DNA of 64,000 nucleotides from Candidatus Campbellbacteria bacterium GW2011_OD1_34_28 (GTDB taxonomy: Bacteria; Patescibacteriota; Minisyncoccia; Phycocordibacterales; UBA12079). The notes below the pieces were generated by a model. The model made no database searches. It was not told the DNA's origin and was given only the letters and a program-made list of their open reading frames with translations. The stretch spans positions 187,187 to 251,186 of the forward strand of contig CP011215.1 in NCBI GenBank assembly GCA_001029775.1, given 5' to 3'. Below, piece by piece: positions 18,699 through 60,691 of this stretch (position 1 is its first letter; every line of letters starts with the position of its first letter). The translations under genes were made by a program, and so were the position numbers.

Positions 18699-18721
18699 AA
18701 TGACGGTATGGGTTTAATTCG

Positions 18722-35434: not shown

Positions 35435-36373
35435 ATGGACAAAAGTTGGCTCCCGAGTAAAAAATTAGTCCTATCTTTTAGTACCCTAGCAATTTTATTG
35501 TTGGGGAGTGTTGCTGTTTCTGAGTTGTTTAATAAGCAAAATGTTTATTTAGGAGAAAATAATAGTGTAAAGGTAGCAGAACTAAGAGGTAGTTTTTCAG
35601 AAAAAGACACGGATGGGGATGGTTTGATGGATTGGGAAGAGTCTCTTTGGAAAACAGATATAAATAACACCGATACAGACGGAGACGGAACAAATGATGG
35701 CGATGAAATACTACAAAAAAGAAATCCTGTTGTCGCTGGACCAGATGATTTATTGAAAGGAGAAATTTTAAGCGATGATAATTTTTTTAAGTACACTGAT
35801 GAAGAAAATTTGACCGAAACAGATAAATTATCAAGAGACCTTTTGGTGGGTTATTTGAGTATGAAAAAAAATGGTTCTTTTGAAGAAAATAAAACACAAT
35901 TTATTCAGTCTTTGTCACAAGATGTTACAGAAATATCAAAAGAAAAATCGGGCAAATTTTATACATCTACAGATATAAATATTATAGATAATAATAAAAA
36001 ATCTGATATTGAAACTTATAAGAAAAATTTTATAGGTATAATGATGTTTAGTAATGATCCAAGTCAAGATATTTCTATATTTAGAGATGCTTTACAAAAT
36101 GAAAGTAGTAAAGAAATATCAAAACTAGATTCAAGTATTTCTTTATATGAATATATGATGGAAAAACTTTTAGATATAAAAGTTCCTTCTTCTTTGCTAC
36201 AATCGCATTTAATAATAGTTAATTCTTTTGATGATATGATAGAGGGAACAAAAAAAATGAGAAATGTTATGATTGATCCTATTGGAGGTCTCTCAGGAAT
36301 AAATTTAAGAATTGCGTCAGAAGAAGTTTTTTTGGTTGGTTTAAATAAATTAAATGATATTTTAGAAAAATAA
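35435..36373 (+). CDS. Membrane-anchored protein with two dockerin/EF-hand-like Ca-binding repeats (DTDGDGLMDWEE / DTDGDGTNDGDE). First gene of the T4SS-like block.
   Basis: N-terminal TM helix; duplicated DxDxDGxxDxxE motif. Confidence 0.45.
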   Translation: MDKSWLPSKKLVLSFSTLAILLLGSVAVSELFNKQNVYLGENNSVKVAELRGSFSEKDTDGDGLMDWEESLWKTDINNTDTDGDGTNDGDEILQKRNPVVAGPDDLLKGEILSDDNFFKYTDEENLTETDKLSRDLLVGYLSMKKNGSFEENKTQFIQSLSQDVTEISKEKSGKFYTSTDINIIDNNKKSDIETYKKNFIGIMMFSNDPSQDISIFRDALQNESSKEISKLDSSISLYEYMMEKLLDIKVPSSLLQSHLIIVNSFDDMIEGTKKMRNVMIDPIGGLSGINLRIASEEVFLVGLNKLNDILEK

Positions 36374-36374
36374 A

Positions 36375-38612
36375 ATGTTTTCAAATAAATTTAAAAAAAC
36401 AACAGCTCTTTTTTTAACGGTAGTTATTATTTTTGTTTCCAGTTTTTCTTTAAAACCACAAAAAACAGAAGCCATTATTGGTTTTGGAGATACTGTTATT
36501 GAAGTAGGAGCGAATCTTTACGCTAACATGACAAAAATGGTAAAAGAAATAGCACTTGATACAATAGCTTGGGCAATTAAGGATAGAATAATTAGACAAA
36601 TAGTCAACTCAACTGTTACATGGATAAATAGTGGTTTTCAAGGCTCTCCGGCATATATAACAGATTTTGAAGGTTTTTTGACTGATGTAGGAGACGATAT
36701 AACGGGAATAATAATAAACGAAACAGGTTTAAACTTTCTTTGTGATCCATTTGCTTTAGATATTAGATTGGCTTTAGAAAATCAATTTATGGAAGGTGAT
36801 GATCTTGATTGTAAGTTGTCCGATGTCACCGACAATATTGGAGGTTCAATAGAGGATATTTCAAATACAATGGGAGAAAATTGGGATTGGGGTGCTTGGG
36901 TACAGATTACCCAAAACACAAGCAATAACCCTTTTTCTTCTTACATAGATGCAACAGTTAGAATTCAAAATACAATTTTTGAAAAAGAACAACAACAGTC
37001 AACCCAGATACAGTGGGCAGATGGTTATATATCAATTCCTTTTTGTGAAACAAATACGGTTGAAGAAAATGGAACTGTTCATTACGATGAACAGTGTAGA
37101 ATTGAAACACCAGGAAAACTTATTTCAGAATCTTTAAACGAACAACTAAGTTGGGGAGGAAAAGAGTTAATATCTGCCGATGAAATAAACGAAATTGTTT
37201 CAGCTTTGTTTGCACAACTAATTAATCAGGTATTTCAAGAAGGCCTTCGTAGTGTAAACGACGATGGATATATGGATGACATGGTGAATGATGATAGTGT
37301 GTGGGAAGGAAGCACTAGGGAAATAATAGGGCAAATTGAAAGAGATATAAAAGAAGAGCAAGCATATTTGGATGTTAAAAAAATGACACTAGAGTTGTTG
37401 TTGTCTACTAAAGAACTTTTGGAAACAATGAAGGAATTTTGTGCGGATGAAGAACTTAATGGTTGGATTAGTAATAAAATAATAACAAAAATTAATCCTT
37501 TGATTGAAAGGATTCAGGCGGACATAAATGTTTCACAAGGAATGATTGACCGTTTGTATGAAATCATTAATAAATTAAGAGCTCTTGTTGATGGAGATTC
37601 TTCAAATCCAGATCCAGATCCTCAGCCAGATCCAGACCCTCAACCAGACCCTTCTGCAAGTTATTCTTGTGAAAAAGTAATTGCACCTAGCTATACAGAC
37701 GGATTTTTCTCTTTGGCGTCATTTAAAAATGTATTATATGCAGGAGCCTTTGGATATGGTCTTGAAAATCAAAGCATGATGTTTGGTGTGGGAGGAGCTT
37801 TCCAACCTGGAATAAAAAATATAGGAGAAAGTGTTTGTGCAATGGAAGAATTTGATGGTTTTCTTTATGCAAATACAGAAAACAGTGGAAAGGTTTATCG
37901 TTCTCAAGACGGTAAAAATTGGGTCACTGTACACAGTTTGGGCCAACCAACAGGTTGTGCTATGGATGTTCACAATAACAACTTGTTTGTTGTTGGTGCA
38001 AATGCTTTTGCTGGATTAAGAAAGTCTGTTATTTATAGATTTACTGGTAAAGTAGGGTGGCAATCTGTATATAGTGACGATTTGTATATAAGAGATATTG
38101 TTTCTTACAAAGGTAGAATATATGCTTTTGGTATTGATAATAGTGGTCAAGGTTATGTTATAAGTTCTGATAATGGTGTTACGGATTGGAGAAAACAACA
38201 GGTGGACAGTCGTTTTTTTAGAGCAACTGTTGTAGATGATACTCTGTGGATAGGGTCTTCTATGAAATATAGTAAAAATAATAAATCTGGAATTTTCAAA
38301 TATAATGGAAATACCTTTGTAAATGTTTATAATACAAATATTTATGAACACATAACCTATGTTAAGGGTTGGGAAGGTGCTTTGTTTGCAGGAACAACAA
38401 AAGGTTTCAAAGTAAAAATGGATGGAACAAATGCAAAGGGTCCAACACAGCTTTTGGTTTCAGCAGACAATGGAACTTCTTGGAAGACAGCATGTACGGT
38501 TCAAGAAGAGGGTATTTGGGATATTATGGAAAACAACGGAAAATTATATATAGCTACGATGAGTTATAATAATGCTACGGGTGGTTCTGTTTATGAGGTA
38601 AAGAAAAAATAA
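36375..38612 (+). CDS. Large secreted/anchored protein (745 aa) with a PDPDPQPDPDPQPDP linker and a C-terminal beta-propeller-like repeat region.
   Basis: N-terminal hydrophobic anchor, low-complexity PD/PQ linker, and repetitive G/Y/W-rich C-terminal blades. Confidence 0.45.
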   Translation: MFSNKFKKTTALFLTVVIIFVSSFSLKPQKTEAIIGFGDTVIEVGANLYANMTKMVKEIALDTIAWAIKDRIIRQIVNSTVTWINSGFQGSPAYITDFEGFLTDVGDDITGIIINETGLNFLCDPFALDIRLALENQFMEGDDLDCKLSDVTDNIGGSIEDISNTMGENWDWGAWVQITQNTSNNPFSSYIDATVRIQNTIFEKEQQQSTQIQWADGYISIPFCETNTVEENGTVHYDEQCRIETPGKLISESLNEQLSWGGKELISADEINEIVSALFAQLINQVFQEGLRSVNDDGYMDDMVNDDSVWEGSTREIIGQIERDIKEEQAYLDVKKMTLELLLSTKELLETMKEFCADEELNGWISNKIITKINPLIERIQADINVSQGMIDRLYEIINKLRALVDGDSSNPDPDPQPDPDPQPDPSASYSCEKVIAPSYTDGFFSLASFKNVLYAGAFGYGLENQSMMFGVGGAFQPGIKNIGESVCAMEEFDGFLYANTENSGKVYRSQDGKNWVTVHSLGQPTGCAMDVHNNNLFVVGANAFAGLRKSVIYRFTGKVGWQSVYSDDLYIRDIVSYKGRIYAFGIDNSGQGYVISSDNGVTDWRKQQVDSRFFRATVVDDTLWIGSSMKYSKNNKSGIFKYNGNTFVNVYNTNIYEHITYVKGWEGALFAGTTKGFKVKMDGTNAKGPTQLLVSADNGTSWKTACTVQEEGIWDIMENNGKLYIATMSYNNATGGSVYEVKKK

Positions 38613-38615
38613 AAT

Positions 38616-39608
38616 ATGAAAAATATTTATAAATTTATTTTAATATTGGTTGTTGTAGTAGGAGTTTCATTTTATTTTGGAAACTCTCCTGCTGAAAACA
38701 TTTCGGCCGCGAACAATGAACATGCCGGAGATGTTAGTGGTTGTAGTGTTACAGCAACAACACTGACTGGCGCAAAGGAATATGGAGAAGATCAAGGTAG
38801 AACAAATGGATGTAGACCAACATTTTTCTTTGATATGTCTGGAGACGGATATTGTCCAGGAGGAAAATGTTCTGTTGATATAAGTTGTGAAGACGGTGAT
38901 GCCGAGACATACACATTTGATAATCCAGGTGTTCCTCCAGGGGAATGTCCTCCTGGTGCAAATTGGAATGGGGCGGTTGGAAATAGTCCTGGAAGATACC
39001 CTCTCGTTTACTGGGATTTGGAAGGATTTCTTTGGAAATCAAAAGGAAATACATATTGTAAATTGGTTGTCTATTTGCCACAAAAATTTGGAACAGGTGA
39101 ATGTGAGCCAGATTTTCAGGGGAGTCCAGCAAGCCCTGCAGATCCTGCAGAAACTTTAATGGATCTTGTTAATGAATGGAGAGATATTTCTGAAAAAATA
39201 CACAGATCGGGTGATTTAGCAGCAGCTCAGGATGAATATGATGAAATAAAAGCCGAAATGGATGCTATAAAAAAAGAAGCTCTTCAAATTGTACCAGAAG
39301 GAAGTTGTGACTATATTATTTACGGAGACGATCCTGGTTTTCATCACTACAATCCACATTCTTTTGATTCAGCAAAATCAGCAATTGTTTTATGTCCACT
39401 TTCACCAGAACTTGTTAGTTGTACGGGTTTTGTTCCTAATATAAATCCACTAACAGGCAAAATGTGGCCAGATAAAAATAGACAGATATTTATACAAGGA
39501 ACACCAAAAAGTGGTCCTTTGACGATAAATTGTTTGGGCAAAGATGGAGAAACTTATAGTTATAGAATTAATGATGGTAATACATACACAAACGGCGTGT
39601 GTCAGTAA
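38616..39608 (+). CDS. Secreted Cys-rich hypothetical protein.
   Basis: Signal/anchor helix; about 14 Cys spread through the mature part. Confidence 0.4.
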   Translation: MKNIYKFILILVVVVGVSFYFGNSPAENISAANNEHAGDVSGCSVTATTLTGAKEYGEDQGRTNGCRPTFFFDMSGDGYCPGGKCSVDISCEDGDAETYTFDNPGVPPGECPPGANWNGAVGNSPGRYPLVYWDLEGFLWKSKGNTYCKLVVYLPQKFGTGECEPDFQGSPASPADPAETLMDLVNEWRDISEKIHRSGDLAAAQDEYDEIKAEMDAIKKEALQIVPEGSCDYIIYGDDPGFHHYNPHSFDSAKSAIVLCPLSPELVSCTGFVPNINPLTGKMWPDKNRQIFIQGTPKSGPLTINCLGKDGETYSYRINDGNTYTNGVCQ

Positions 39609-39666
39609 AAGATAAAAGTTGCTTTTAAATATCTTTTTAGAAAGATGTTTAAATAAAAAATTATAA

Positions 39667-41691
39667 ATGGCGAAATTGTTAAAATTTAGAAAAATAATAT
39701 CTTTCTTTTTTGGAATGGTTGTTTTGTTCGGAGGTATTTTTTCTCCGGTTGGTTTTGATATTCAAAATGGAGGAAATCTAACAATAGATGTTGCAAGTGC
39801 TGCAAATCAAACCGGTACCAGTGTTTCTTGGGAAGATTTTATTGAAAGTGAAGGATATTCTTGTAATATAGCATCATGGAATTTCACTTTCGGCGGTTGT
39901 ATGGTTTTGGTACTAAAGGATGTATATGCGGTTGTTGCTTTTTTGTTGGTTATATTTGCAAAATTTTTTGATGTTCTTCTAATGTTTTCTATTAGTGATA
40001 AATTTTTAGACCAAGAATTTATTGGACCAGCATGGACGGCATTGAGGGATGCTGCCAATATGTTGTTTATTTTTCTGTTGGTAATTATTTCCATATCAAT
40101 AATACTGGATTATGGAAGTTTCAAATCAAAAGAATTGATAGTAAAAGTAATAATGATTGCAATTGCTATCAATTTTAGCTTGTTTGTTTCAAGGGTGGTC
40201 ATAGATGCGGGAAATATTTTCACGGTTGGTTTTTATGATGCGATAGGTGCAAAAGATATGGAAGATACATATATTGCAGGTATTATTCCAAAAGAAATTT
40301 CTAGTGGACTGATGTCTATGTTTAATCCAGTAGAGATGATGGATCAGGAGGCTTTTCATAAATGGGTGGAAGGTGAGGGAGATAAGACCGCTATTATGAT
40401 TGTTATTTTTTTGGTTGCTATTGCAATAGCTTTTTATACGGCGTATGTGTTTTTTATGGCTGGCTGGACATTTATTGGTAGGGTTATTTATCTTTGGATG
40501 TTGATGGTTCTTTCTCCTCTTGCTTTTATGTCTTATGCTATTCCTGGAATGGGATCGTATTTTACAAAATGGTGGCAAAAGTTATTGGATAAATCTTTTT
40601 GTGTAGTAGTATTTCTTTTTATCCTGTGGTTGTTGTTCTTAATAAATGATAATGGACTTTTTGCCTCAAATAATTTTGTTGAAGGTGATAATATTTTAGG
40701 ACAGATATTGGTAATTCTAATGAAAGCAATGATTGTTTTTGCTTTTATGAGAACAGCATTATCTGAATTAAAGAAAAAATGTGATGACGGTGTTATTGGG
40801 GATAGTATATTAAAAGGTGTGAAAGGAGCTGTTGGTTTGGCTGGTATTGCAACAGGAGGTGCTTTGGTGGGTGCAGGAGCAAAAGCATTGGGCGGTAATT
40901 TGATGAGAGGAACGGTTGGACGAGCTGCACAACGCGGTGCGGAATATATGGAAAAGAAAGGTGGGGGTACATCAACTATGGGTAAATTGGGATTGAAAAC
41001 ATTAAGAAATGTTGGAGATTCAAAATTCGGAATGGCAAAAGAAAGTTTCAAAGCCAGAGAAGATAGTAAAGTAAAAGATCATCATGCTTATGCAAATACT
41101 TTGTCAAAAGAAAAGAATATTACAGCAAACGAATTAGATGCCAAAGGAAAACCTGTAAGAGATGCACAGGGAAATATTAAGAAGACAAATATTAGTGCTC
41201 AGGATCAGTATTATAGAAATATTTCAAAATCAAAAATTTCTAATACCGTTGCAGCAACCGCTGGTGCGGCAACAGTTGCAACAGGAGGTGTTTTGGCACC
41301 TTTAACTGTTCCTCTAGCGGATTATATGAGAACTCGTGCAACCACTGGTGCAAAAGCAGCTGAACAACAAGGAAAGATAAGTAAATTAAATAAAGATAAA
41401 GAAATAGAGAGGGAAAAATTCAAACTTGAAATTGAGAAATTAAAAAATGAAGAACTTAGAGAAGCTGAAATTCATTTGCAAGAAGCAAAAGATGATTTGG
41501 AGAAAGCAAAATTAGCAAAACAACCAGAAAGTGCGCTAAGTATTTATAGGTCTGGTGTTGGAGATGCACAGGTTACTTTGTCAAAAGCTAATTCAGAAAT
41601 AAAAAAGAAAGAAGAAGAACTAAAAGAAAAATTGAAAAAGTATGATGAGGATATTAAGAAAGCGAGAGAGGATATGAAAAAAAATAAATAA
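39667..41691 (+). CDS. Polytopic membrane protein, VirB6/TrbL-like, with a Gly-rich segment and a long C-terminal coiled coil.
   Basis: At least 6 hydrophobic helices followed by GAVGLAGIATGGALVGAGAKALGG and a K/E-rich coiled coil. Assigned to VirB6 by topology and context only. Confidence 0.35.
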   Translation: MAKLLKFRKIISFFFGMVVLFGGIFSPVGFDIQNGGNLTIDVASAANQTGTSVSWEDFIESEGYSCNIASWNFTFGGCMVLVLKDVYAVVAFLLVIFAKFFDVLLMFSISDKFLDQEFIGPAWTALRDAANMLFIFLLVIISISIILDYGSFKSKELIVKVIMIAIAINFSLFVSRVVIDAGNIFTVGFYDAIGAKDMEDTYIAGIIPKEISSGLMSMFNPVEMMDQEAFHKWVEGEGDKTAIMIVIFLVAIAIAFYTAYVFFMAGWTFIGRVIYLWMLMVLSPLAFMSYAIPGMGSYFTKWWQKLLDKSFCVVVFLFILWLLFLINDNGLFASNNFVEGDNILGQILVILMKAMIVFAFMRTALSELKKKCDDGVIGDSILKGVKGAVGLAGIATGGALVGAGAKALGGNLMRGTVGRAAQRGAEYMEKKGGGTSTMGKLGLKTLRNVGDSKFGMAKESFKAREDSKVKDHHAYANTLSKEKNITANELDAKGKPVRDAQGNIKKTNISAQDQYYRNISKSKISNTVAATAGAATVATGGVLAPLTVPLADYMRTRATTGAKAAEQQGKISKLNKDKEIEREKFKLEIEKLKNEELREAEIHLQEAKDDLEKAKLAKQPESALSIYRSGVGDAQVTLSKANSEIKKKEEELKEKLKKYDEDIKKAREDMKKNK

Positions 41692-41701
41692 TTTATAAAC
41701 T

Positions 41702-42349
41702 ATGGAATATACACCAGAACAAATTGAAAATAGACTAAATTCGCTTCCTGCTGATATCAAGCAGGCGATGTCAGAGGTTGATACAACCACAGCTATTTTA
41801 AATGTGGGAAAGAAAAATGGACTTCATGTAGATCAGATGGGAGAGCTTCTCTATTGTGTTGGCCTTGTGATGCTCGGCCTCGAACATTCTCAACGCTTTG
41901 CAGACATTATTATTGAAAAGGTGGGCGTTTCCCCTGAACAAGCAGAAGTGATAACCGCCGATATAAACAACGAGGTTTTCTTAAAATTGAGAGAGTCTAT
42001 TAAAAAAATTCACGAACAGCACTCTTCTCAAAATACAGAAATAGATAATAGGCCTTTGGCAGAGAAAATGAATCCTTTTGAACAAAAACACGAAGGAGAG
42101 GTGTTGGATAAAGACAAAATTTTGGCAGAGATAGAAAACCCTGAAAATATTATAGAAAACAAGGTTTCAACACCTTCTGTAAATATAAACGTTCAAATTC
42201 CTGTGATTGAGCCTCCTATGCCCGCAGAACCTTTTAAAATGAATATTATGGAGAGTAAATTGGGTGGAGTAACAAAATTACCTATGCAAGAGAAAAAGGT
42301 AGAAGAATCAGGAGTAAAGATAGATCCGTATAGAGAACCAATTGAGTAG
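41702..42349 (+). CDS. Hypothetical protein in the T4SS-like block.
   Basis: ORF only. Confidence 0.35.
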   Translation: MEYTPEQIENRLNSLPADIKQAMSEVDTTTAILNVGKKNGLHVDQMGELLYCVGLVMLGLEHSQRFADIIIEKVGVSPEQAEVITADINNEVFLKLRESIKKIHEQHSSQNTEIDNRPLAEKMNPFEQKHEGEVLDKDKILAEIENPENIIENKVSTPSVNINVQIPVIEPPMPAEPFKMNIMESKLGGVTKLPMQEKKVEESGVKIDPYREPIE

Positions 42350-42378
42350 AAAGTCGAAAGTTTGTAAAGTTATAAAGT

Positions 42379-42723
42379 ATGAAAATAGAAAGATTTGAAG
42401 ATATAATATCATGGCAAAAAGCTGAAAAATTAACCCTAGATATTTATAACATTTTTAGAAATATTAATGATTTTGGTTTTAAAAATCAAATACAAAGATC
42501 TTCTGTTTCTATAATGAATAATATTGCCGAAGGGTTTGAAAGAAAGGGAAATAATGAATTAAAGTATTTTTTGTTCGTTGCAAAAGGATCATGTGCTGAA
42601 ACCAGATCAATGTTGCACTTATCATTACAGTTGAAATATTTAAAAGAAGATCAATATAAAAAATTAAACGAATTATCAATAGAAATTTCAAAATTATTAT
42701 CAGGTTTAATCAAAACTTTATAA
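42379..42723 (+). CDS. Four-helix-bundle protein, 23S-rRNA-intervening-sequence / DGR Avd-like family (paralog 1).
   Basis: ~115 aa, motifs IAEGFERKGNNELKYFLFVAKGSCAETRSML typical of the TIGR02436-type bundle. Confidence 0.6.
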   Translation: MKIERFEDIISWQKAEKLTLDIYNIFRNINDFGFKNQIQRSSVSIMNNIAEGFERKGNNELKYFLFVAKGSCAETRSMLHLSLQLKYLKEDQYKKLNELSIEISKLLSGLIKTL

Positions 42724-42755
42724 ACTTTAAACTTTATAAACTTTAAACTAATATC

Positions 42756-43181
42756 GTGCATTTCGAAGTACCACAATTTATAGATATAGAAGACAAAATA
42801 GTTGGACCCCTAACTATCAAGCAGTTTATTTTCGTTGCCGGAGGAGCAGGAATTTGTTTTGCTATCTATTTTTTTCTTAAAAGTCTATTTTTCACTCTTC
42901 TTCTAGGGGCTCCTTTTATAGCTCTTTCTCTTTCTCTTGCTTTTTATAAACCAAGCGGAAGACCTTTTATTTTAGTTTTGGAATCAGCCTTTTGGTTTTT
43001 CTTGAAAAGTAAATTATATATTTGGAAAAAAGAACCAAAGAAAGTTCAGAAAGGAGTAGAAAAAGAACCCGATTTGGTGGCTCAGATGAATGTACCAAAA
43101 TTGTCAGATAGTAAATTATCAGATTTGGGTTGGAGTTTGGATATAAAAGACAAATTGGAAGATAATATGAATAATAATTAA
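42756..43181 (+). CDS. Small two-TM membrane protein, VirB3/PrgI-like.
   Basis: Two adjacent hydrophobic helices in a 141 aa protein, two genes upstream of the VirB4 ATPase. Confidence 0.35.
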   Translation: MHFEVPQFIDIEDKIVGPLTIKQFIFVAGGAGICFAIYFFLKSLFFTLLLGAPFIALSLSLAFYKPSGRPFILVLESAFWFFLKSKLYIWKKEPKKVQKGVEKEPDLVAQMNVPKLSDSKLSDLGWSLDIKDKLEDNMNNN

Positions 43182-43207
43182 TAAAAATTCAAAATTGAAA
43201 TCTCAAA

Positions 43208-43579
43208 ATGCAAAATGAAAAAGAAAAATTTAAAAATGAATTTAAGAAAAGATTGTATACATGGACACTAAGATTAATAAAATTTATTGATAAATTAAAT
43301 AAAGATTCTGTCTGTAATGTAATAGGAAAACAATTATTGAGAAGCGGAACAAGTATTTTATCAAACTATGTTGAAGCGGGATCTGCTAGTTCGAAGAGAG
43401 ATTACATTAATTTTTTTACATATTCTTTAAAATCATCCAATGAATCGAAGGTGTGGTTGTCTTTGTTGAGGGATACAAACAAGGGGGATAAAAAAGAATT
43501 AGAGTGGATGTTATGTGAATTACAAGAAATATCAAACATCATTGCATCTGGTATAATAACAATGAAAGGGAAAAGATAA
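43208..43579 (+). CDS. Four-helix-bundle protein, Avd-like / 23S rRNA IVS family (paralog 2).
   Basis: GKQLLRSGTSILSNYVEAGSASSKRDYINFFTYSLKSSNESKVWL, same family signature as paralog 1. Confidence 0.6.
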   Translation: MQNEKEKFKNEFKKRLYTWTLRLIKFIDKLNKDSVCNVIGKQLLRSGTSILSNYVEAGSASSKRDYINFFTYSLKSSNESKVWLSLLRDTNKGDKKELEWMLCELQEISNIIASGIITMKGKR

Positions 43580-43635
43580 TTTTTATTTTTAAACTGTCAT
43601 TTTTAATTTTGAGATTTTAATTTTGAATTTGAAAC

Positions 43636-44265
43636 ATGGAAAAAACATCAGCAACACAAGGATTTGTTCCTATCAAAGAAATAAGAGATGGTGTAATTGT
43701 TCTTAAAGATAATTCTCTAAGGGCTATTTTGATGGTTTCTTCTTTAAATTTTTCTTTAAAATCCTCAGATGAACAAATAGCAATTATTTATCAATTTCAA
43801 AATTTTTTAAACTCTCTTGATTTTTCTACTCAGATTTATATTCAATCAAGAAAGTTGGATATTAGGCCTTATATCTCAGTTATGGAGGAAAAATACAAAG
43901 CTCAAACAAATGATTTGATGAAAATTCAAACAAGAGAATATATAGAATTTATAAAGAAATTTACCGAGAGTGTAAATATAATGACGAAAAACTTCTTTAT
44001 AATTGTACCTTACACACCTTCTTTTCTAGGAAACTCCTCGAAAGGCCCCCTCGGTCTTGGTGGAGGGAAAAAAAATACACAAATTTTGGAAAACGATTCT
44101 TTTGAAGAGAGTCGTTCACAGTTGGAACAAAGAGCCAATGTCATAGAACAAGGGTTATCAAGGTCTGGTTTAAGGGTTGCCAGATTAGGAACTGAAGAAT
44201 CGGTAGAATTACTTTATAAAATATTTAATCCAGGAGAATCAGAAAAACCAATTCAACTAAATTAA
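43636..44265 (+). CDS. VirB4/TraC/CagE-family N-terminal domain, encoded as a separate ORF that ends 4 nt before the ATPase ORF.
   Basis: 209 aa + 604 aa equals a typical VirB4 length. The N-terminal GFVPIKEIRDGVIVLKDNSLRAIL resembles the VirB4 N-terminal motif. Confidence 0.45.
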   Translation: MEKTSATQGFVPIKEIRDGVIVLKDNSLRAILMVSSLNFSLKSSDEQIAIIYQFQNFLNSLDFSTQIYIQSRKLDIRPYISVMEEKYKAQTNDLMKIQTREYIEFIKKFTESVNIMTKNFFIIVPYTPSFLGNSSKGPLGLGGGKKNTQILENDSFEESRSQLEQRANVIEQGLSRSGLRVARLGTEESVELLYKIFNPGESEKPIQLN

Positions 44266-44269
44266 AAAT

Positions 44270-46084
44270 ATGAGCATTTTTGATAAAATTTTAGGAAAAA
44301 AAGACGAGGGTCCGGGTATCACACCCACATTGCCACAGGAAATTTATGAGACTGGTGTTTTGGAATTGCAAGATATTATTGCTCCTTCTGCTCTAAAGAT
44401 TTCTCCTAACAATATTAACCTCGGTGGTAAAATAATGAAAACATTTTTTGTTATTTCTTATCCAAGATTTTTATCTGACAATTGGTTTTCTTCTGTAATT
44501 AATTTAGATAAAGAATTTGATGTATCTATTTTTATTCATCCGATTGAGACAGAAAAAGTATTGCGACAATTTCAAAAGAAAGTAGCCGAGGTTCAAAGCC
44601 AAATAATGACAAGAGAAGAAAAGGGATTTGTTAGAGACCCGGGTTTAGACGCTGCTTATCAAAATCTCGAAGATTTGCGTGACAAATTGCAACAGGCACA
44701 GGAAAAATTGTTTGATGTCGGTGTTTATATTTCTATTTATGGAAAAGATGATGACGAATTGAACAAACTTGAATCAGAGATTCGTTCTATTTTGGAATCA
44801 AAACTTATCTACATTAGACCATCTCTTTTCCAACAAGAACAAGGTTTTAGAAGTATTTTGCCATTAGGAAATGATCTTTTAAATGTTCACTCAAAGCTTA
44901 ATTCCGCCCCTCTTTCCAGTATTTTTCCTTTCGTTTCTTTTGACCTAACATCTGATAAAGGAATTTTGTATGGAGTAAACAGACACAACTCAAGTTTGAT
45001 AATTTTTGATCGTTTTTCTTTAGCAAACTACAATTCAGTTACTTTTGCAAAATCTGGAGCAGGAAAATCTTATGCAATCAAATTGGAAGTTTTGAGATCT
45101 CTAATGTTTGGTGTAGAGGTTATGGTAATAGACCCTGAAAGAGAATTTGAATATTTGTCCGAGGCAGTAGGGGGAAGATATTTTAATATTTCTTTGTCGT
45201 CCGAACACCATATCAATCCTTTTGATTTACCAGCTCCAAGACCAGACGAATCACCTTCAAATGTTTTGCGATCACATATTGTCAATTTGGTAGGGCTTTT
45301 TAGAATTATGTTGGGAGGGTTATCACCAGAAGAAGATGCAATAGTGGACAGAGCTATTTCGGAAACTTATGCCTTGAGAGATATTACACCCGATTCCGAT
45401 TTTACAAACATAGAACCACCTCTTTTGTCAGACTTTGAACTTGTTTTGGCGGGAATGGAAGGAGCCGATGTTTTGGTTCAAAAAATATCAAAATATACAA
45501 AAGGTACATGGTCTGGATTTTTGAACAAACCAACCAATGTGGATATAAATAGTAAATTTATTGTATTCTCTATTAGAGACATGGAAGATGAGTTGCGACC
45601 GGTGGCAATGTATATTATTACCCACTATATTTGGAATGCGGTTAGAAAAGAATTGAAAAAAAGATTGTTTGTTATCGACGAAGCATGGCAAATGATGAAA
45701 TCAGAAGACGCTGCCTCTTTCTTGTTTAGTATGGCAAAAAGAGGAAGAAAATATTATTTAGGATTGGCAACAATTACCCAAGACATCAACGACTTTCTTC
45801 CTTCTCCGTATGGACTGCCCATTATCACCAACTCTTCTATTCAGGTGTTGTTGAAACAGTCTCCTACAACAATAGACGCTGTTCAAAAAACATTTAACCT
45901 TACAGATGAGGAAAAATATCTTCTTTTGGAAGCGGGTGTAGGGGAGGGAATTTTCTTTGCTGGACTAAAACACGTAGCAATAAAAATAATTGCATCATAT
46001 ACCGAAGATCAGATTATTACATCGGATCCATCACAGGTTTTGGCCATTAAACAAGCAAAAAGAGATCTGGAAGCATCTGAATAA
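44270..46084 (+). CDS. virB4: VirB4/TrbE/TraC-family type IV secretion ATPase (C-terminal ATPase portion).
   Basis: Walker A FAKSGAGKSY, VMVIDPEREF, Walker B LFVIDEAWQMM, and conserved C-terminal motifs. Confidence 0.75.
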   Translation: MSIFDKILGKKDEGPGITPTLPQEIYETGVLELQDIIAPSALKISPNNINLGGKIMKTFFVISYPRFLSDNWFSSVINLDKEFDVSIFIHPIETEKVLRQFQKKVAEVQSQIMTREEKGFVRDPGLDAAYQNLEDLRDKLQQAQEKLFDVGVYISIYGKDDDELNKLESEIRSILESKLIYIRPSLFQQEQGFRSILPLGNDLLNVHSKLNSAPLSSIFPFVSFDLTSDKGILYGVNRHNSSLIIFDRFSLANYNSVTFAKSGAGKSYAIKLEVLRSLMFGVEVMVIDPEREFEYLSEAVGGRYFNISLSSEHHINPFDLPAPRPDESPSNVLRSHIVNLVGLFRIMLGGLSPEEDAIVDRAISETYALRDITPDSDFTNIEPPLLSDFELVLAGMEGADVLVQKISKYTKGTWSGFLNKPTNVDINSKFIVFSIRDMEDELRPVAMYIITHYIWNAVRKELKKRLFVIDEAWQMMKSEDAASFLFSMAKRGRKYYLGLATITQDINDFLPSPYGLPIITNSSIQVLLKQSPTTIDAVQKTFNLTDEEKYLLLEAGVGEGIFFAGLKHVAIKIIASYTEDQIITSDPSQVLAIKQAKRDLEASE

Positions 46085-46108
46085 TTTATGTTAATATAAA
46101 TATAATAA

Positions 46109-47176
46109 ATGAAGAAAGTATTTAATAAAAAAATAAAAGTTTATTTGGGGGTACTTTTCGTTTTTTCTTTTGTTTTTGTTTCTTTTGCTGATGCTGTTGA
46201 AACAGATATAGAAAGTTATGTTTTTGGTGGTAGTGGTATTGGTAGTTTACCAGAATTATTAACTATGAAGCTAAGTAATAGAATACCCAGTCCAAACGAA
46301 GAAATTACAATATCTTTGGAAAATTATTCAATAGATTTGTATACATCACAGATTTCTTGGTATAAAAATGATTCTTTGGTAGAGAGAGGTCTTGGAAAAA
46401 AAGATTTTACTTTTAATGTGGGAGGTTTGGGTACATCTGACACAATTACCGCAGTTGTTTTAACAAAAAATGGTGAACAAATTTCAACTAGCAAAACTTT
46501 TTCTCCTGCAGAGGTTGATATTGTGTGGGAGGGAGATGTTTATACACCACCTTTTTATAAAGGAAAGGCACTCGTCTCACATCGTTCTGTTGTAAAAATA
46601 GTCGCAATTCCAAATTTTATTGGTTCTAACAAATCAAAAATAAGTGACGATAAATTGATGTATGTTTGGAAAAAGAATGGAAATATTATAAATGGATCAC
46701 AAGGGATGGGCAAAAATATGTTGTATTATGATATGGAGAAAAATTTTAGAGACAGTGTTTTGACAGTCGAGGTTTCTAATAGCGACGATTCTATAAAAGC
46801 AAAATCTTCTGTCAGTATAAAAGAGATCAAACCAAAGATAGTGTTTTATGAAAACGACCCTCTTATGGGAATAGTTTTTGAAAAAGCATTAAATAAAAAA
46901 ACCGACTTGTTAAAAGAAGAAATAACTGTAACCGCGCAACCTTTCTTTTTTTCAAAAGATGATATAAAAAATGAGAAACTTGAATATAAATGGAAACTTA
47001 ACAATAAAATATTGGATGATGTCGTTGGAGATTTTATAACCTTGAAAAAAGGTGAAGACAAAGGTACCGCAAATTTAAGTCTGAATATACAAGATAAAAA
47101 TAGAGTAATGCAGTCAGCGACAAACATTTTAAATATCAATTTTGATGATGAGAGAGCATCGTTATTTAATTTTTAA
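46109..47176 (+). CDS. Secreted hypothetical protein (T4SS-like block).
   Basis: Signal peptide; repetitive beta-rich sequence. Confidence 0.4.
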   Translation: MKKVFNKKIKVYLGVLFVFSFVFVSFADAVETDIESYVFGGSGIGSLPELLTMKLSNRIPSPNEEITISLENYSIDLYTSQISWYKNDSLVERGLGKKDFTFNVGGLGTSDTITAVVLTKNGEQISTSKTFSPAEVDIVWEGDVYTPPFYKGKALVSHRSVVKIVAIPNFIGSNKSKISDDKLMYVWKKNGNIINGSQGMGKNMLYYDMEKNFRDSVLTVEVSNSDDSIKAKSSVSIKEIKPKIVFYENDPLMGIVFEKALNKKTDLLKEEITVTAQPFFFSKDDIKNEKLEYKWKLNNKILDDVVGDFITLKKGEDKGTANLSLNIQDKNRVMQSATNILNINFDDERASLFNF

Positions 47177-47179
47177 TAT

Positions 47180-47593
47180 ATGATAAATTTTTTAAAAAAT
47201 AAAAAAATACAAATCGTTTCATCAGCTGCTTTTCTTTTTTTTGTTTCTTTCTCTGTTTCTTTCTCTGCAGTTGAATATAAGATGCTTGAAAAATTGCCCT
47301 ACATCAATCCAAATGGGGAAGCTGTAGATCTTACAACATATCTTTCAGGAGCGTTTAGACTGGCTTTTGGTGTTGCTATTCTTTTAGCGGTATTTCAACT
47401 ATCATTTGCTGGTTTCAAATATCTAACAGAAGAATCTTTTACTGGAAAAACAAATGCAAAAAGTAAAATCAACAACGCGATTTTTGGACTTGTCCTTATT
47501 TTTGTTTCTTATTTGTTGTTGAATTTTATCAACCCAGATTTGGTGAATATTCAATTTGAAATTCCTAAGGTAGGTAAGTCTAATGGGTCATGA
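47180..47593 (+). CDS. VirB2/TrbC-like pilin candidate.
   Basis: 137 aa, a cleavable-looking leader, then two hydrophobic helices (AFRLAFGVAILLAVFQLSFAGF and IFGLVLIFVSYLLLNFI), the typical VirB2 topology. Confidence 0.4.
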   Translation: MINFLKNKKIQIVSSAAFLFFVSFSVSFSAVEYKMLEKLPYINPNGEAVDLTTYLSGAFRLAFGVAILLAVFQLSFAGFKYLTEESFTGKTNAKSKINNAIFGLVLIFVSYLLLNFINPDLVNIQFEIPKVGKSNGS

Positions 47594-47631
47594 GCAAGTG
47601 GAGGTTGGTAAAAATATAACAATAATATAAT

Positions 47632-48906
47632 TTGGTTTATTTTATGACAAAAAAGATTTTAATAATATTGATAATAATATTGATACTCGCAGTTGTTGGA
47701 GTGTTTATTTTTTATTTTGCATTTTCAAAAAATAATCCAAATTCTGATCAATTTGATGGATCTCCGTTGGGATTTATTTTTGGTAATTTTGGTGGAGGAG
47801 GAAATAATTTAGATGAAGATGTAGACAATGGACCAGATATTACAATTGGAGAAGAAAAACCACTTTTGAGATTAAGAAAAATTTCTGAAACTCCAACCGC
47901 TGGTTTTGTTGTTTTCCAAAACGAAGACAAAGAAGTGACTGTCAGATATACAGAAAGATCAACGGGGCATATTTTTGAAGCAAGCACAGTTCGTCCAACA
48001 ATAAAAAGAATCTCAAATACAACTATTCCAAGGATTTATGAAGCGGTTTGGGTAAATAGTGAAGAATCTGTAATGAGATATTTAGATGAAGATAATAATA
48101 TAAAAAGTTTTTATGCAAAAATAATAAAAAATGATGCAGACAGCACAGAAGAAGGAAAAACAGAAGGTGTATTTTTGAGAGATAACATAAAAGATGTCTT
48201 TTTGTATGGAAAAAAGATCTTAAATATTTATAACGAAGCAGGATATTCTCAGTTTGTGATTTCCGATGTTGATGGAAGTAATTCTTTTGAAATATACGAA
48301 TACCCTCTTGAAGGATGGTTGATTCAGTCTCCAAAAACAGGAATGTTTGCTCTAACAATAAAGCCAACATATGATAATTTTGGATATTTGTATTTTTTGG
48401 ATATAAATTCAAAAGAAAAAACAAAAATTTTATCTAAAGTTGTTGGATTAACGACGCTGACAAGTGGTGATGCAAACAAGGTATTGTTTGCAGAAAAGAT
48501 AAAACTTTCTTCTTATGATGTTGATAATAAAGAAACAAAAAAGATGGATGTTGATACACTTCCTGAAAAATGCGCGTGGTTTAATGATTCTATAAGTGTT
48601 ATTTGTGGTATTCCAAAAAATACATTGGGTGGAAAGTATCCAGACGATTGGTATCAGGGGATATATTCGTTTTCTGACGATATTTATATATTGGATGTAG
48701 ATGGAGGATTTTCTGAGTTGATTATTTCACCAGAAGAATTTTCTGGAGAAAATATTGATCTAATAAAACCAATTTTTAGCTCGGATGAAAAGTTTTTGTT
48801 CTTTATAAACAAAAAAGATCAATCGTTATGGAGTTTGGAGATATCACCAGAAATTAAAATTAAAACAGAAAATATAGAGACAGCAACAACAACGAGTGAA
48901 AACTAA
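47632..48906 (+). CDS. N-terminally anchored extracytoplasmic hypothetical protein (last gene of the block).
   Basis: One N-terminal TM helix; no family recognised. Confidence 0.4.
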   Translation: MVYFMTKKILIILIIILILAVVGVFIFYFAFSKNNPNSDQFDGSPLGFIFGNFGGGGNNLDEDVDNGPDITIGEEKPLLRLRKISETPTAGFVVFQNEDKEVTVRYTERSTGHIFEASTVRPTIKRISNTTIPRIYEAVWVNSEESVMRYLDEDNNIKSFYAKIIKNDADSTEEGKTEGVFLRDNIKDVFLYGKKILNIYNEAGYSQFVISDVDGSNSFEIYEYPLEGWLIQSPKTGMFALTIKPTYDNFGYLYFLDINSKEKTKILSKVVGLTTLTSGDANKVLFAEKIKLSSYDVDNKETKKMDVDTLPEKCAWFNDSISVICGIPKNTLGGKYPDDWYQGIYSFSDDIYILDVDGGFSELIISPEEFSGENIDLIKPIFSSDEKFLFFINKKDQSLWSLEISPEIKIKTENIETATTTSEN

Positions 48907-58206: not shown

Positions 58207-59715
58207 ATGGTATTTATGGATAGTAATAGATTTTTGTTTTTGATTGCGTTTATTGTTGGTGTTTCTGTCATGGCGATGGAAATAACTGCTTCAAGGATAT
58301 TAGCCCCTCATTTTGGGACATCTATTTTTGTTTGGACAAATATAATTGGTGTAGTGATGATGTCTTTATCTCTTGGATATTGGTTGGGTGGTAAATTGGT
58401 TGATAAAAATCCAAGATTGGAATTGTTGTTGAAAATTATTTTAGGAGCGGGTTTGTTTTTTTTGGGGGTTCCTTTTTTATCAAATAATTTAATAGAGATG
58501 ATATCAGAAAATATTTTATTTTTTGATTCTGGAGTGACAATTTTATTTGTGGGTTCTTTTCTTTCAGCTTTTATTTTGTTTGGCTTTCCTATGTTTTTAC
58601 TTGGAATAACTAGTCCTTTTTTAATAAAACTATACTCTGTTAATAATAAAGAACACGAAGGTGAGACTTCGGGAACCATTTTTGCGATTTCTACGCTGGG
58701 GAGTATTTTTGGGACATTTTTACCATCTCTTGTTCTGATTCCCTTTATAGGAACAAAATTTACAATTTATTTATTTTCCTGTATTTTAATATTTTTAGGT
58801 GTGGCGGGTGTTTTTAGTTTGAAAAACAAGTTTTTATTTTTGATTATTCCTTTTATTTGTTTTTTTTCTTTAAATCCTTCCATTTCAACAAATGCCAGCA
58901 CTGTTATAGAAAAGGAATCTATATATCAATTTATAAATGTTACTAGTTACGACAATAGAAAATATTATATTTCTTACAACGAGGGTAGGGGAACTCAGTC
59001 CATTTTGGATAAAGATAATTTTTTAACAGGCCAATATTATGATTATGCTTCACTTTTACCATTAATGAAAGACTCTGGCACACTAGAATATTTACTTGTC
59101 GGTTTGGCGGGAGGAACAATAGTAAATGCCCTAGACAAGATTTATGGTAAAGATATCAATGTCACAGCGGTTGAAATAGACAAAGATGTAATAGAAATTT
59201 CAAATAATTTATTGAATTTAGAAAATTCATCTTTGAATGTTGTAAATATGGACGGGAGAATGTTTTTAAAATTTAACAAAAAGAAATACGATTTTATTTA
59301 TATAGATGTTTATATTAATGAGATGTATGTGCCTTGGACATTTTCAACTTCTGAATTTTGGAAGATTGTGAAAAATTCTCTAAAAGAAGATGGCGTTGTT
59401 GGAATAAATTTGTTTTCTGGCGGTGAAAATACTGATTTTTTGAAAATTTTTTCTAACACAATTGCAAAAGAATTCAGTCATACTTATGGTTTGTGGCCGA
59501 TAAAGAATGGCTCTTATAATTATGCTGTTTTTGCATCAAATGAGAGCATCAATTTTGATAAAATGAAGCAAAAAAAAGAATATAAAGTGTTGAGTGATCA
59601 GATTGATTATTTTTTAAACAACTATATTGATATTAATTATTCTGAGGATATAAAAGTATTTACCGATGATTGGTGCCCCGTTGAGTTTTTGACAGATAAA
59701 ACAATTTTTAATTAA
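58207..59715 (+). CDS. Fusion of an N-terminal polytopic membrane domain with a C-terminal spermidine-synthase-like (SpeE-fold) methyltransferase-type domain.
   Basis: About 7 hydrophobic helices, then LLVGLAGGTIVNAL...VTAVEIDKDVIE...YDFIYIDVY, typical of polyamine aminopropyltransferase. Confidence 0.55.
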   Translation: MVFMDSNRFLFLIAFIVGVSVMAMEITASRILAPHFGTSIFVWTNIIGVVMMSLSLGYWLGGKLVDKNPRLELLLKIILGAGLFFLGVPFLSNNLIEMISENILFFDSGVTILFVGSFLSAFILFGFPMFLLGITSPFLIKLYSVNNKEHEGETSGTIFAISTLGSIFGTFLPSLVLIPFIGTKFTIYLFSCILIFLGVAGVFSLKNKFLFLIIPFICFFSLNPSISTNASTVIEKESIYQFINVTSYDNRKYYISYNEGRGTQSILDKDNFLTGQYYDYASLLPLMKDSGTLEYLLVGLAGGTIVNALDKIYGKDINVTAVEIDKDVIEISNNLLNLENSSLNVVNMDGRMFLKFNKKKYDFIYIDVYINEMYVPWTFSTSEFWKIVKNSLKEDGVVGINLFSGGENTDFLKIFSNTIAKEFSHTYGLWPIKNGSYNYAVFASNESINFDKMKQKKEYKVLSDQIDYFLNNYIDINYSEDIKVFTDDWCPVEFLTDKTIFN

Positions 59716-59750
59716 ACAAACCCGCTTTTTAGCGGGTTTGTTGTGTCTTT

Positions 59751-59987
59751 TTAAAACAAGTCGTCTTCTGGTTCTACATCGTCGTACAAATCTTCTGCTC
59801 CTAGATCATCTCCATCTTCTTTGTTTGCCACACACACATCGCAGTCTCCACAAGTACATTCTCCATCCTTGGCAATACATTCTTCACACTCTCCACAACT
59901 GCAGATATCTGGTTCAACATCTCCTCCAATAACAGCATCTAAATCCTCATCAGCCAAGACACCTTCGTTTATATTTTCTTCTTCCAT
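59751..59987 (-). CDS. Double-glycine-leader peptide precursor. The core is highly acidic and has 8 Cys: DVEPDICSCGECEECIAKDGECTCGDCDVCVANKEDGDD...
   Basis: The leader MEEENINEGVLADEDLDAVIGG matches the GG-leader consensus at -12 L, -8 D/E, -7 L, -4 V/I, -2 G, -1 G. It is followed by the terminator AAACCCGCTTTTTAGCGGGTTTG (59720-59745). Confidence 0.55.
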   Translation of the reverse strand: MEEENINEGVLADEDLDAVIGGDVEPDICSCGECEECIAKDGECTCGDCDVCVANKEDGDDLGAEDLYDDVEPEDDLF

Positions 59988-60109
59988 TTTATTTTTTTAA
60001 ATTGGTTTTTAAAATTGACCATTAAAAGTTTCACAACTTTGATTTAACCCATTTTTATCAAATTTAAACAGTTTGTGCAATATAGACTTATCCCCAAAAA
60101 GAATGTGTG

Positions 60110-60215
60110 GTCTATAAATCCTACTTACCCCTTACACCTCTCTCCTTACCCCTCACACCTTACCCCTTACACCTCTCTCCTTACCCCTCACACCTCACAC
60201 CTTACACCTTAATCC
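60110..60215. repeat. Minisatellite of about 12 tandem 8-9-mers (CCTTACCC/CTCACACC; purine-rich GGTGTAAGG/GGTGTGAGG on the minus strand), upstream of the GG-leader peptide gene. A related GTAAGG-rich tract lies at 32165-32212.
   Basis: Tandem periodicity read directly. Confidence 0.6.
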
Positions 60216-60691
60216 TAATTTCTGTGACTCGCTAAATGAGTAAGCCCAACCGCGATAGCATCGTATTCGTCATCATGTTTTATTTCCTTTTCTATCTTGA
60301 TAAGACGGAGAACCATATCAGTTACTTGTTTTTTGTCGCTTTTTCCATATCCAGTAACGGCTATCTTTATTTGTAGGGGAGTGTATTCAAAAACTGGAAT
60401 TTTGTTCAACATCGCCTGATACATTATTACGCCTCTTGCTTCTGATACACCCATAACTGTTTTTTGGTTGTTGGTAAAAAATAATGTTTCTATGGCGAGT
60501 GCTTTTGCACCGTACTCTCTTATTATCTTATTTATTTCTTGCCCAATTAAAAATAGTCTTTCTGTAAGGGGAAGTTTCGGAGATGTTTTAAAACAATCAG
60601 AATAAATCAATTTTTCTTTTTGTCCGCCCTCTTTTTCTATAATAGCAATCCCTACTCTTTCGTATCCGGGATCAATAGATATTATTTTCAT
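60215..60691 (-). CDS. ruvC: Crossover junction endodeoxyribonuclease RuvC. The start is probably at 60691 (MKIISIDPG).
   Basis: IISIDPGYERVGIAIIE (catalytic Asp) and RNase-H-fold motifs; about 158 aa. Confidence 0.85.
   Translation of the reverse strand: MKIISIDPGYERVGIAIIEKEGGQKEKLIYSDCFKTSPKLPLTERLFLIGQEINKIIREYGAKALAIETLFFTNNQKTVMGVSEARGVIMYQAMLNKIPVFEYTPLQIKIAVTGYGKSDKKQVTDMVLRLIKIEKEIKHDDEYDAIAVGLTHLASHRN

Follow-up and report, generated by a model that had tools for sequence, protein, structure and literature searches.

A conserved gene for a small, acidic, Cys-rich protein

We analyzed a 64,000-nt stretch of the genome of Candidatus Campbellbacteria bacterium GW2011_OD1_34_28 (contig CP011215.1, positions 187,187–251,186; hereafter, the window), a member of the candidate phyla radiation (CPR), and found that a 78-amino-acid (aa) open reading frame (ORF) on its minus strand is a genuine gene under strong purifying selection, whose product, with eight Cys residues (the Cys8 protein), belongs to a small conserved family. 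With a probability of about 0.5, we read this product as a cytoplasmic, zinc-knotted, polyanionic mini-protein that would act as an adaptor or inhibitor and is restricted to one Paceibacterota (Parcubacteria) clade of the CPR. The ORF was confirmed with the sequence (MEEENINEGVLADEDLDAVIGGDVEPDICSCGECEECIAKDGECTCGDCDVCVANKEDGDDLGAEDLYDDVEPEDDLF) first quoted in an initial annotation of the window, and the Cys-dense, acidic core described there was confirmed as well: the protein contains 30 Asp/Glu residues against 2 Lys/Arg residues (net charge of about −28), and all eight Cys residues fall within 24 residues. The same annotation had called the gene an orphan, which is refuted in the sense of an unconserved gene. 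Searches of 5.8 billion proteins, of 1.8 billion cluster representatives (with the family profile), and of 185,000 species genomes yielded approximately 16 distinct homologues (labeled P0001–P0012 for proteins and L013–L017 for loci), all within Paceibacterota-type CPR bacteria, and the related loci were assigned to Candidatus Paceibacterota or Campbellbacteria. The identical 78-aa protein was called on contigs in 46 blocks of a public collection, and the assemblies carrying it include GCA_000990765.1 (contig LBQI01000001.1) and GCA_003489565.1. There was no annotated relative among the homologues found; the family, with proteins of 60–90 aa, matched no model in Pfam, NCBIfam, or PADLOC (only sub-threshold scores were obtained), and a literature search on cysteine-rich small proteins of CPR bacteria turned up nothing relevant. 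The NCBIfam match to hit_Bd0108 (E = 0.19, four members) and the profile matches to TAZ and ferredoxin structures in the Protein Data Bank (PDB; E > 0.2) were taken as noise.

When 12 members were aligned, the eight Cys residues (C29, C31, C34, C37, C44, C46, C49, and C52) proved invariant together with G47, D48, and D50, giving the core consensus CxCG[ED]CxxC-I-x3-G-x-CxCGDC[DE]xC, and the pattern C.C..C..C.{6}C.C..C..C was fitted by 11/11 loci. Conservation extended to the C-terminal tail, which follows a short variable acidic linker and has the consensus E-D-[LVA]-[YF]-D-D-Φ-[EDN]-P-E-D-Φ-Φ; E65 and D70 were invariant, D66, D69, and E74 nearly so, and the terminus was hydrophobic in almost all members. 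The N-terminus carries a weaker motif that is acidic-hydrophobic like the tail (MEDEILxxDxΦL), and the family thus shows a gradient from a variable N-terminus to an invariant Cys core and C-terminal tail. In the 24-codon Cys core, pooled over the 11 loci with DNA sequence, pS was 0.76 and pN was 0.12 (pN/pS, 0.16), and the window differed from locus L013 by eight synonymous and no non-synonymous changes. Because synonymous changes dominate in the Cys core, the frame is translated and strongly constrained. The proteins of the family have no hydrophobic signal sequence, and the product is most likely cytoplasmic.

The SSB C-terminal tail has the motif DDDIPF, and the β-clamp motif is QL[SD]LF. 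The Cys8 C-termini end in DLF or LLF in only some members, and Pro-Phe or Gln occurs in none; we mention mimicry of either motif by the tail as a possibility and make no claim for it. P0012 (positions 2859–3089 of L023) joins the Cys8 core and tail, in frame, to a piece of sequence similar to the first CxxC of the PilB/GspE zinc site (AQRLVRILCSTCKE). We discarded this locus as a Rosetta-stone fusion: it lies on a single 3.1-kb metagenome contig, starts with TTG, and has a further, internal ATG at the core. A chimeric assembly or a true rearrangement could account for it.

The Cys core and its probable chemistry

Metal binding is the most plausible chemistry for the core, and we retain the metal-binding peptide that the initial annotation had offered as a fallback. 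The sole family match was Pfam zf-CXXC (PF02008), obtained with 6/12 members (E = 2.3 for the window protein; best E = 0.55) at a score of 8.7 bits against a gathering threshold of 26.5. When the family profile was compared with the PDB, the CXXC finger of CFP1 ranked first (E = 0.04), with both CGxCxxC motifs aligned; the CGECEEC and CGDCDVC motifs of the window protein align with the two CFP1 clusters. Furthermore, the only match outside the family among the 1.8 billion representatives was a eukaryotic protein (P0013) with five CXXC-type repeats, to which hhalign assigned a probability of 51% over 26 ungapped columns with the shared spacing CxxCxxC-x8-CxxCxxC. The Cys8 protein and the eukaryotic CXXC zinc fingers (PF02008; CFP1, PDB 3qmb; MBD1; DNMT1) thus have in common two CGxCxxC motifs and eight Cys residues. 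However, true CXXC fingers have a KFGG loop and two distal C-terminal Cys residues, both of which the Cys8 protein lacks, and they have no counterpart of the extra Cys found two residues before each CG. They are also basic, whereas the Cys8 protein is strongly acidic and bacterial, and because of this acidity CpG DNA binding is impossible for it. A literature search on prokaryotic CXXC domains turned up nothing relevant. The resemblance appears to be a structural analogy rather than family membership, and we do not claim common ancestry.

Two other kinds of metal protein have to be considered. The Cys8 core and its carboxylates could serve as a metallothionein-like buffer or store that sequesters Zn, Cu, or Cd without any protein partner. 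Cys accounts for 33% of the core, which has CxC and CxxC motifs and many carboxylates on its flanks, and the protein shows no homology to any partner-binding family; a metallothionein-type Cys density (about 30%) with such motifs is, however, reached in the 24-residue core only. A simple buffer would leave unexplained the strictly conserved acidic-hydrophobic C-terminal motif, the invariant Gly, Asp, and Glu residues between the Cys residues, and the DnaA-box-like element described below. In addition, the window and its flanks contain no metal-responsive regulator or transporter, and no Pfam metallothionein family was matched, so that we regard this function as unlikely.

Alternatively, the two CxxCxxC motifs and the two extra Cys residues might hold one or two [4Fe-4S] or [2Fe-2S] clusters, as in a pared-down version of an acidic clostridial ferredoxin. 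The small size, the extreme acidity, the eight Cys residues in two CxxCxxC motifs, a presumably anaerobic host, and a weak ferredoxin match in the PDB (E = 0.72) are consistent with such a redox protein, but the details of the motif are not: the CxxCxxCxxxCP form and any Cys-Pro are missing, with the fourth Cys placed at a distance of 6 residues and 8 residues between the motifs. The 24-residue Cys region has almost no hydrophobic residues to bury a cluster, no Pfam Fer4 match was obtained, and no redox-related genes are neighbors. An iron-sulfur protein is consequently improbable.

A conserved promoter with a DnaA-box-like element

The gene is preceded by a sigma-70-type promoter (Table 1), the architecture of which is common to 11/11 loci (TTGCxx, a spacer of 16–17 nt, and (TGn)TAAAAA, TAAAAT, or TAGAAT), while the surrounding sequence has diverged. 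A simple promoter scanner missed it, as its rule demands T at position 6 of the −10 hexamer. Upstream of the −35 hexamer lies a 9-mer that corresponds, in reverse complement, to the DnaA-box consensus TTATCCACA (PMC8203912). The motif TG[TG][GT][GA]A[AT]AA sits 5–7 nt upstream of the −35 hexamer in 11/11 loci, and a perfect DnaA box, TGTGGATAA, occupies this position in L004 and L017. The strict form, TG[TG]GGATAA, occurs seven times in the window (11372, 16329, 32152, 35383, 50781, 50888, and 60088). All seven copies are intergenic, although intergenic DNA makes up 16% of the window; two of them face each other in the rpmH-dnaA spacer, and the TGGGGATAA variant is found only in that spacer and in the promoter of the Cys8 gene. 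This candidate box suggests that the promoter is controlled by DnaA. A long inverted repeat (TGGATAACTAAAAAGTGTCTTTTA...TAAAAGACACTTTTTAGTTATCCA) includes the copy at 16329.

The 5′ untranslated region (UTR) of the transcript is A/U-rich, has no Shine-Dalgarno sequence, and contains a small hairpin (AAAGTT-GTGA-AACTTT, 60025–60040); it is approximately 58 nt long in the window and 36–155 nt at the other loci compared. The fold of the whole mRNA was unremarkable (z = −1.4). Rfam at the gathering score detected only three tRNAs, elsewhere in the window, and in E-value mode over 59650–60300 it returned terminator-driven noise and no family for the UTR. The intrinsic terminator is shared with the convergent gene, and a hairpin with a T-run directly follows the stop codon at every homologous locus. 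With a promoter and an intrinsic terminator of its own, the gene is separately transcribed. Because ruvC, the upstream neighbor, has no hairpin terminator, read-through from ruvC into the Cys8 gene is also possible.

Among 30 long genes of the window, none carried a Shine-Dalgarno-like motif at a distance of up to 20 nt from the start codon, and in several a TATAAT-like box lies only 5–10 nt before the ATG (the start codons surveyed include 14135, 19665(−), 26997, 35435, and 50193(−)). This suggests that translation in the window is independent of Shine-Dalgarno sequences and partly leaderless. The 5′ UTR of the Cys8 gene contrasts with these near-leaderless genes.

Proposed role of the Cys8 protein

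In the adaptor or inhibitor model that we favor, the eight thiolates would bind metal, in the simplest case two Zn(II) ions; a CxxCxxC triad and either C29 or C44 would coordinate each ion, in a cross-brace like that of a CXXC finger, so that the core forms a tiny knot. The two disordered polyanionic arms would mimic a nucleic acid or an acidic protein tail, and the C-terminal EDLYDDxEPEDΦΦ motif would dock into a pocket on a putative partner protein. The Cys8 protein would thereby act on a DNA-handling protein as a stoichiometric adaptor or inhibitor, and its expression would be tied to DnaA, as is that of Bacillus sda. Our best guess places the partner in replication, recombination, or repair, because the promoter element suggests DnaA control; these specifics, DNA metabolism and DnaA, are tentative and rather doubtful. 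In its most explicit form, the proposal would be that a DnaA-controlled, two-zinc “mini-CXXC” family with polyanionic arms throttles a replication, recombination, or repair enzyme as a mimic of nucleic acid or of an acidic tail. The target may be RuvC, the constant neighbor, or a protein of the clamp, SSB-partner, or topoisomerase type. We consider this full version unlikely.

Several observations weigh against the model. Metal binding and the docking partner are both hypothetical. Every CXXC similarity lies below curated thresholds and could reflect any Cys-rich spacing, and a Zn(Cys)4 site ringed by Asp and Glu with only one Lys nearby would be electrostatically unusual. The AlphaFold2 prediction made with the 12-sequence family alignment was uninformative (pLDDT, 54; pTM, 0.22), and a Foldseek search of the PDB with this model gave no match. 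The degenerate form of the DnaA-like motif shows only a weak enrichment in intergenic DNA (14/50, p = 0.02), and a different transcription factor could bind the 9-mer. Finally, in 12/13 distinct loci the gene is immediately preceded by ruvC on the same strand (RuvC, 72–98% identical), with PBP1A following in 9 of these 12; the exception is L023, the short contig with the odd in-frame PilB-like N-terminus. Given the close kinship of these genomes, the synteny counts as weak functional evidence, and the order ruvC–Cys8 gene–PBP1A may be inherited rather than functional.

The double-glycine motif

The initial annotation had taken the ORF for the precursor of a bacteriocin or another ribosomally made peptide with post-translational modifications (RiPP), carrying a double-glycine leader. 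Cleavage of the peptide would follow Gly22, its export would depend on a C39-peptidase ATP-binding cassette (ABC) transporter encoded elsewhere in the genome, and thioethers or disulfides would cross-link its core. The alternation of Cys with Asp/Glu recalls ranthipeptide and QhpC chemistry. Moreover, the N-terminus of the window protein, L(−12)x3D(−8)L(−7)xxV(−4)xGG, does fit the ComA-type leader consensus, Leu(−12)-X3-Glu/Asp(−8)-Leu(−7)...Val(−4)...Gly-Gly (PMC6363468). In a six-frame translation of the window (128,000 residues), the expression L...[DE]L..[VILM].G[GAS] matched only this peptide, and it occurred in 77 of 200,000 shuffles of the peptide (4e−4). There was also a weak match to TIGR04149 (GG radical-SAM target; E = 0.05), but its score of 13.5 bits is below the cut-off of 25 and it was confined to the two GG-bearing members of the 12.

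The leader is therefore present in the window sequence but is not a conserved feature. VIGG is carried by 2 of the approximately 16 distinct members, the window protein and P0001 (93% identical), and is missing from the other 14: the protein of L013, 89% identical, reads AVIGDAEPD at this site, P0002 (67% identical) reads ALIPEDTEPD, and the other members have shorter acidic N-termini without the Gly pair. The hydrophobic residues at −4, −7, and −12 and the acidic residue at −8 are in place in the window protein, but this pattern is not diagnostic, because the same acidic-hydrophobic pattern marks both termini of members without GG; the L...DL part of the supposed leader belongs to the general N-terminal pattern of the family. 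As the initial annotation had noted, processing genes are absent nearby, and this was borne out on a larger scale. A Pfam scan of the window with approximately 10 kb on each side (approximately 84 kb) detected no Peptidase_C39, Radical_SAM, SPASM, lanthipeptide (LanB/C/M), or YcaO domain; the sole ABC proteins there were a branched-chain amino-acid importer and a UvrA-like protein. The other 12 distinct loci were likewise free of such domains, and in none of the 13 was a peptidase-ABC exporter or a maturase found beside the gene. The gene is surrounded by core housekeeping genes, and a conserved tail behind a variable N-terminus is the opposite of leader/core logic.

This conservation pattern largely refutes the RiPP interpretation, which we consider very improbable; the GG motif most likely arose by chance, in one sub-lineage, from the acidic-hydrophobic N-terminus of the family. 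The likeness to double-glycine substrates of peptidase-containing ABC transporters and to TIGR04149 targets (PMC6363468) consists of the leader match in the window protein alone, and the family differs from them in its unconserved motif, its loci without transporter or maturase, its sub-cut-off score, and its conserved tail. For genome mining, this case is a caution that chance can produce a near-perfect double-glycine match within a disordered, acidic-hydrophobic arm, and that comparison with close homologues exposes such leaders at once.

A heptamer array upstream of the gene

The initial annotation correctly placed a tandem repeat directly upstream of the Cys8 gene, but its unit, given as 8–9 nt in about 12 copies at 60110–60215, is in fact 7 nt and occurs 13 times (Table 1). 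The units (AGGATTA, AGGTGTA, AGGTGTG twice, AGGGGTA, AGGAGAG, etc.) begin with one that overlaps the ruvC stop codon and end approximately 30 nt from the DnaA-box-like element; within them, a 35-nt higher-order repeat of 2.5 copies with a 96% match indicates a recent duplication. In a genome of 33% GC, the array contains no C, with 52% G and 80% purine, and for lack of C it cannot form a hairpin; its G4Hunter value of 1.72 is the highest in the window. Two arrays of this kind occur in the window against a mean of 0.01 in shuffles. The second (AGGNNNA, six units, 32168–32209, plus strand) is upstream of a UvrD-like helicase gene (32335–34308) and adjoins a perfect DnaA box (TGTGGATAA) at 32152; a 9-nt repeat (ATTCGTATA, four copies) follows at 32280–32314, and all three elements fall within the promoter region of the helicase gene.

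The copy-number comparison across strains that had been suggested earlier gave 13 units in the window, approximately 11 in L022, 9 in L013, and approximately 2 in L012. L022 (RuvC, 98%; same peptide and promoter) lacks the 35-nt duplication and has a 230-nt insertion before the promoter; the nine units of L013 (peptide 89% identical) are different AGGNNNN heptamers; L012 (peptide 93% identical) has two AGGATTT units; and the array is absent from the more distant loci L004, L009–L011, and L014–L017. Three assemblies of the organism, which may derive from the same data, were identical over 14 kb that include the array. A metagenome scan with the promoter flank found one additional strain, and repeat variation is thinly sampled at the population level.

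The repeat had been suggested to vary expression by slipped-strand mispairing. As an explanation of the repeat only, it could be a contingency locus at which copy number tunes the expression of the Cys8 gene or ruvC, or a G-quadruplex or R-loop insulator after ruvC. The change in unit number and composition between close strains, the recent duplication, the high G4Hunter value in a C-free tract, the lack of a hairpin terminator after ruvC, the second array before the uvrD-like gene, and the precedent of hmw1A (PMC12721329) all speak for such a function. However, the array lies upstream of the module formed by the DnaA-like box and the −35 and −10 hexamers, so that the classic spacer-length switch does not apply, and since it is outside the −35/−10 spacer and the 5′ UTR, as well as the ORF, its length leaves promoter geometry unchanged. 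Most loci of the family keep the same promoter without any array, the insertion in L022 separates the array from an unchanged promoter, and the three assemblies are identical. The many other short tandem repeats in intergenic DNA suggest a general mutational property. Strain variation in copy number thus stands, whereas a regulatory effect is quite unlikely; the array is a real, fast-evolving simple-sequence tract, located outside the promoter module, and the gene family can do without it.

Intergenic tandem arrays of 7-nt units in strain-variable number are likewise known as the STRR heptamers of heterocystous cyanobacteria. The heptamers of hmw1A/hmw2A in Haemophilus influenzae (PMC12721329, PMC8262952) are also intergenic, of approximately 10–20 units, and variable between strains. 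The hmw tract, however, forms part of the 5′ UTR, and a G-rich arm pairs with it, whereas the array described here lies upstream of the promoter, constitutes the G-rich strand itself, consists of heterogeneous units, and has no nearby complementary partner.

Two families of 9-nt tandem repeats also occur between genes of the window: ATTCGTAT(T/A), in both orientations, at 18717–18760, 19711–19745, and 32280–32314, and AAACTTTA(C/T) at 816–853, 4867–4905, and 42713–42749. Repeats of the ACTTTATGG type occupy the same spacer between ruvC and the Cys8 gene in L012 and L022. Together with the heptamer array, these repeats point to unusually repeat-prone intergenic DNA in a Shine-Dalgarno-less genome.

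Gene neighborhood and other features of the window

The coordinates of the gene, its signals, and its neighbors are given in Table 1.

Table 1. Features of the Cys8 locus (positions in the window)
Feature	Position	Strand	Basis or remark
Gene for the 78-aa polyanionic Cys8 mini-protein	59751–59987	Minus	ORF list, homologues; stop codon at 59751–59753
Cys core CSCGECEECIAKDGECTCGDCDVC, aa 29–52, two CxCGxCxxC half-sites; putative two-metal site	59832–59903	Minus	12-member alignment
Acidic-hydrophobic C-terminal motif EDLYDDVEPEDDLF, aa 65–78; putative partner-docking tail	59754–59795	Minus	Family alignment
VIGG, aa 19–22; supposed double-glycine cleavage site	59922–59933	Minus	Lineage-specific, not conserved
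5′ UTR, approximately 58 nt	59988–60045	Minus	Length inferred from the −10 position
Sigma-70-type promoter: −35 TTGCAC (60075–60080), 17-nt spacer, TG (60059–60060), −10 TAAAAA (60052–60057)	60052–60080	Minus	Conserved in 11 loci
DnaA-box-like 9-mer TGGGGATAA (reverse complement TTATCCCCA)	60088–60096	Minus	7 nt upstream of −35
Array of 13 heptamers, AGGNGNR	60126–60216	Minus	Between ruvC stop codon and promoter
ruvC, 158 aa, upstream neighbor	60215–60691	Minus	Pfam RuvC, E = 1e−41
Bidirectional intrinsic terminator, 12-bp GC-rich hairpin with T-runs on both strands	59715–59742	Both	Terminator scan and RNA fold
Convergent membrane-protein gene with spermidine-synthase-like domain	58207–59715	Plus	Neighbor of the Cys8 gene

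In L004, a locus without the heptamer array, a palindromic element (AAAAGTGTATAAAA..CGACCG..TTTTATACAC) occurs at 7810–7860 and 8300–8350 and flanks the Cys8 gene, one copy after ruvC and the other after the terminator of the Cys8 gene. This pair suggests a small dispersed hairpin of the REP/MITE type.

Other parts of the window also contain unusual features. A 530-bp intergenic region near tRNA genes (10953–11482) is crowded with tandem repeats of 18, 10, and 19 nt and has three sites resembling a DnaA box; located far from dnaA (50996), it could be an origin-like region or an iteron region derived from a plasmid or phage. A type IV secretion-like cluster at approximately 35435–48906, just upstream of the yidC-rnpA-rpmH/dnaA-dnaN origin region, encodes PrgI, a TraC-like protein, a TraG P-loop ATPase, and a type IV secretion pilin, interleaved with several large proteins without Pfam domains and two proteins of the 23S_rRNA_IVP family. 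At positions 1–9100, four TrmB-family regulator genes alternate with several Peripla_BP_6 genes and a branched-chain amino-acid ABC importer, an expansion that is unusual for such a small genome.

Comparison with known small regulatory proteins

If the adaptor or inhibitor model is correct, the Cys8 proteins, with approximately 16 members among billions of sequences, would be a compact, unannotated family that adds to the short list of bacterial zinc-knuckle mini-proteins regulating DNA enzymes. They would also provide a candidate member of the DnaA regulon in CPR bacteria, the cell-cycle control of which is essentially unknown. A mechanistic analogue is YacG, an endogenous zinc-finger inhibitor of DNA gyrase in which the zinc finger and the tail occlude the DNA site of gyrase (PMC4083091, PMC2490753). 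YacG and the Cys8 protein are both small cytoplasmic bacterial proteins (approximately 65 aa for YacG) that combine a Cys zinc module (Cys4 in YacG; putative in the Cys8 protein) with a flexible acidic tail bearing hydrophobic residues, which insert into pockets of a DNA enzyme in YacG and would do so in the proposed model of the Cys8 protein. However, YacG has one treble-clef zinc site rather than eight Cys residues, and its tail anchors are Trp, in place of the Leu, Tyr, and Phe of the Cys8 protein; there is no sequence likeness, and no YacG match was found in Pfam or NCBIfam. DnaA also acts as a transcription factor, and the promoter of sda has DnaA boxes (PMC8203912). Like Sda and other small proteins of the DnaA regulon, the Cys8 protein would be a small protein linked to replication status by a DnaA-box promoter (PMC8203912), but Sda has no Cys cluster and no homology to it, and for the Cys8 gene the binding of DnaA is inferred from a single conserved 9-mer. 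If the full mini-CXXC version of the proposal were true, the family would be a bacterial counterpart of YacG and Sda built on a minimal double CGxCxxC knuckle that is otherwise known only from eukaryotic CpG readers.

The zinc-finger micro-proteins of haloarchaea (Brz, PMC2253796; PMC10117724) are likewise acidic, are 60–90 aa long, and have Cys pairs around a metal (putative in the Cys8 protein), and they act through protein or regulatory interactions, as we propose for the Cys8 protein. They differ in having CPxCG pairs in place of CxCGxCxxC, belong to another domain of life, and show no detectable homology. Small Cys-rich, metal-binding regulatory proteins are thus known as such, and what seems to be new in the Cys8 family, as far as its sequences indicate, is the combination of two CxCGxCxxC half-sites with extreme acidity and a DnaA-box promoter.

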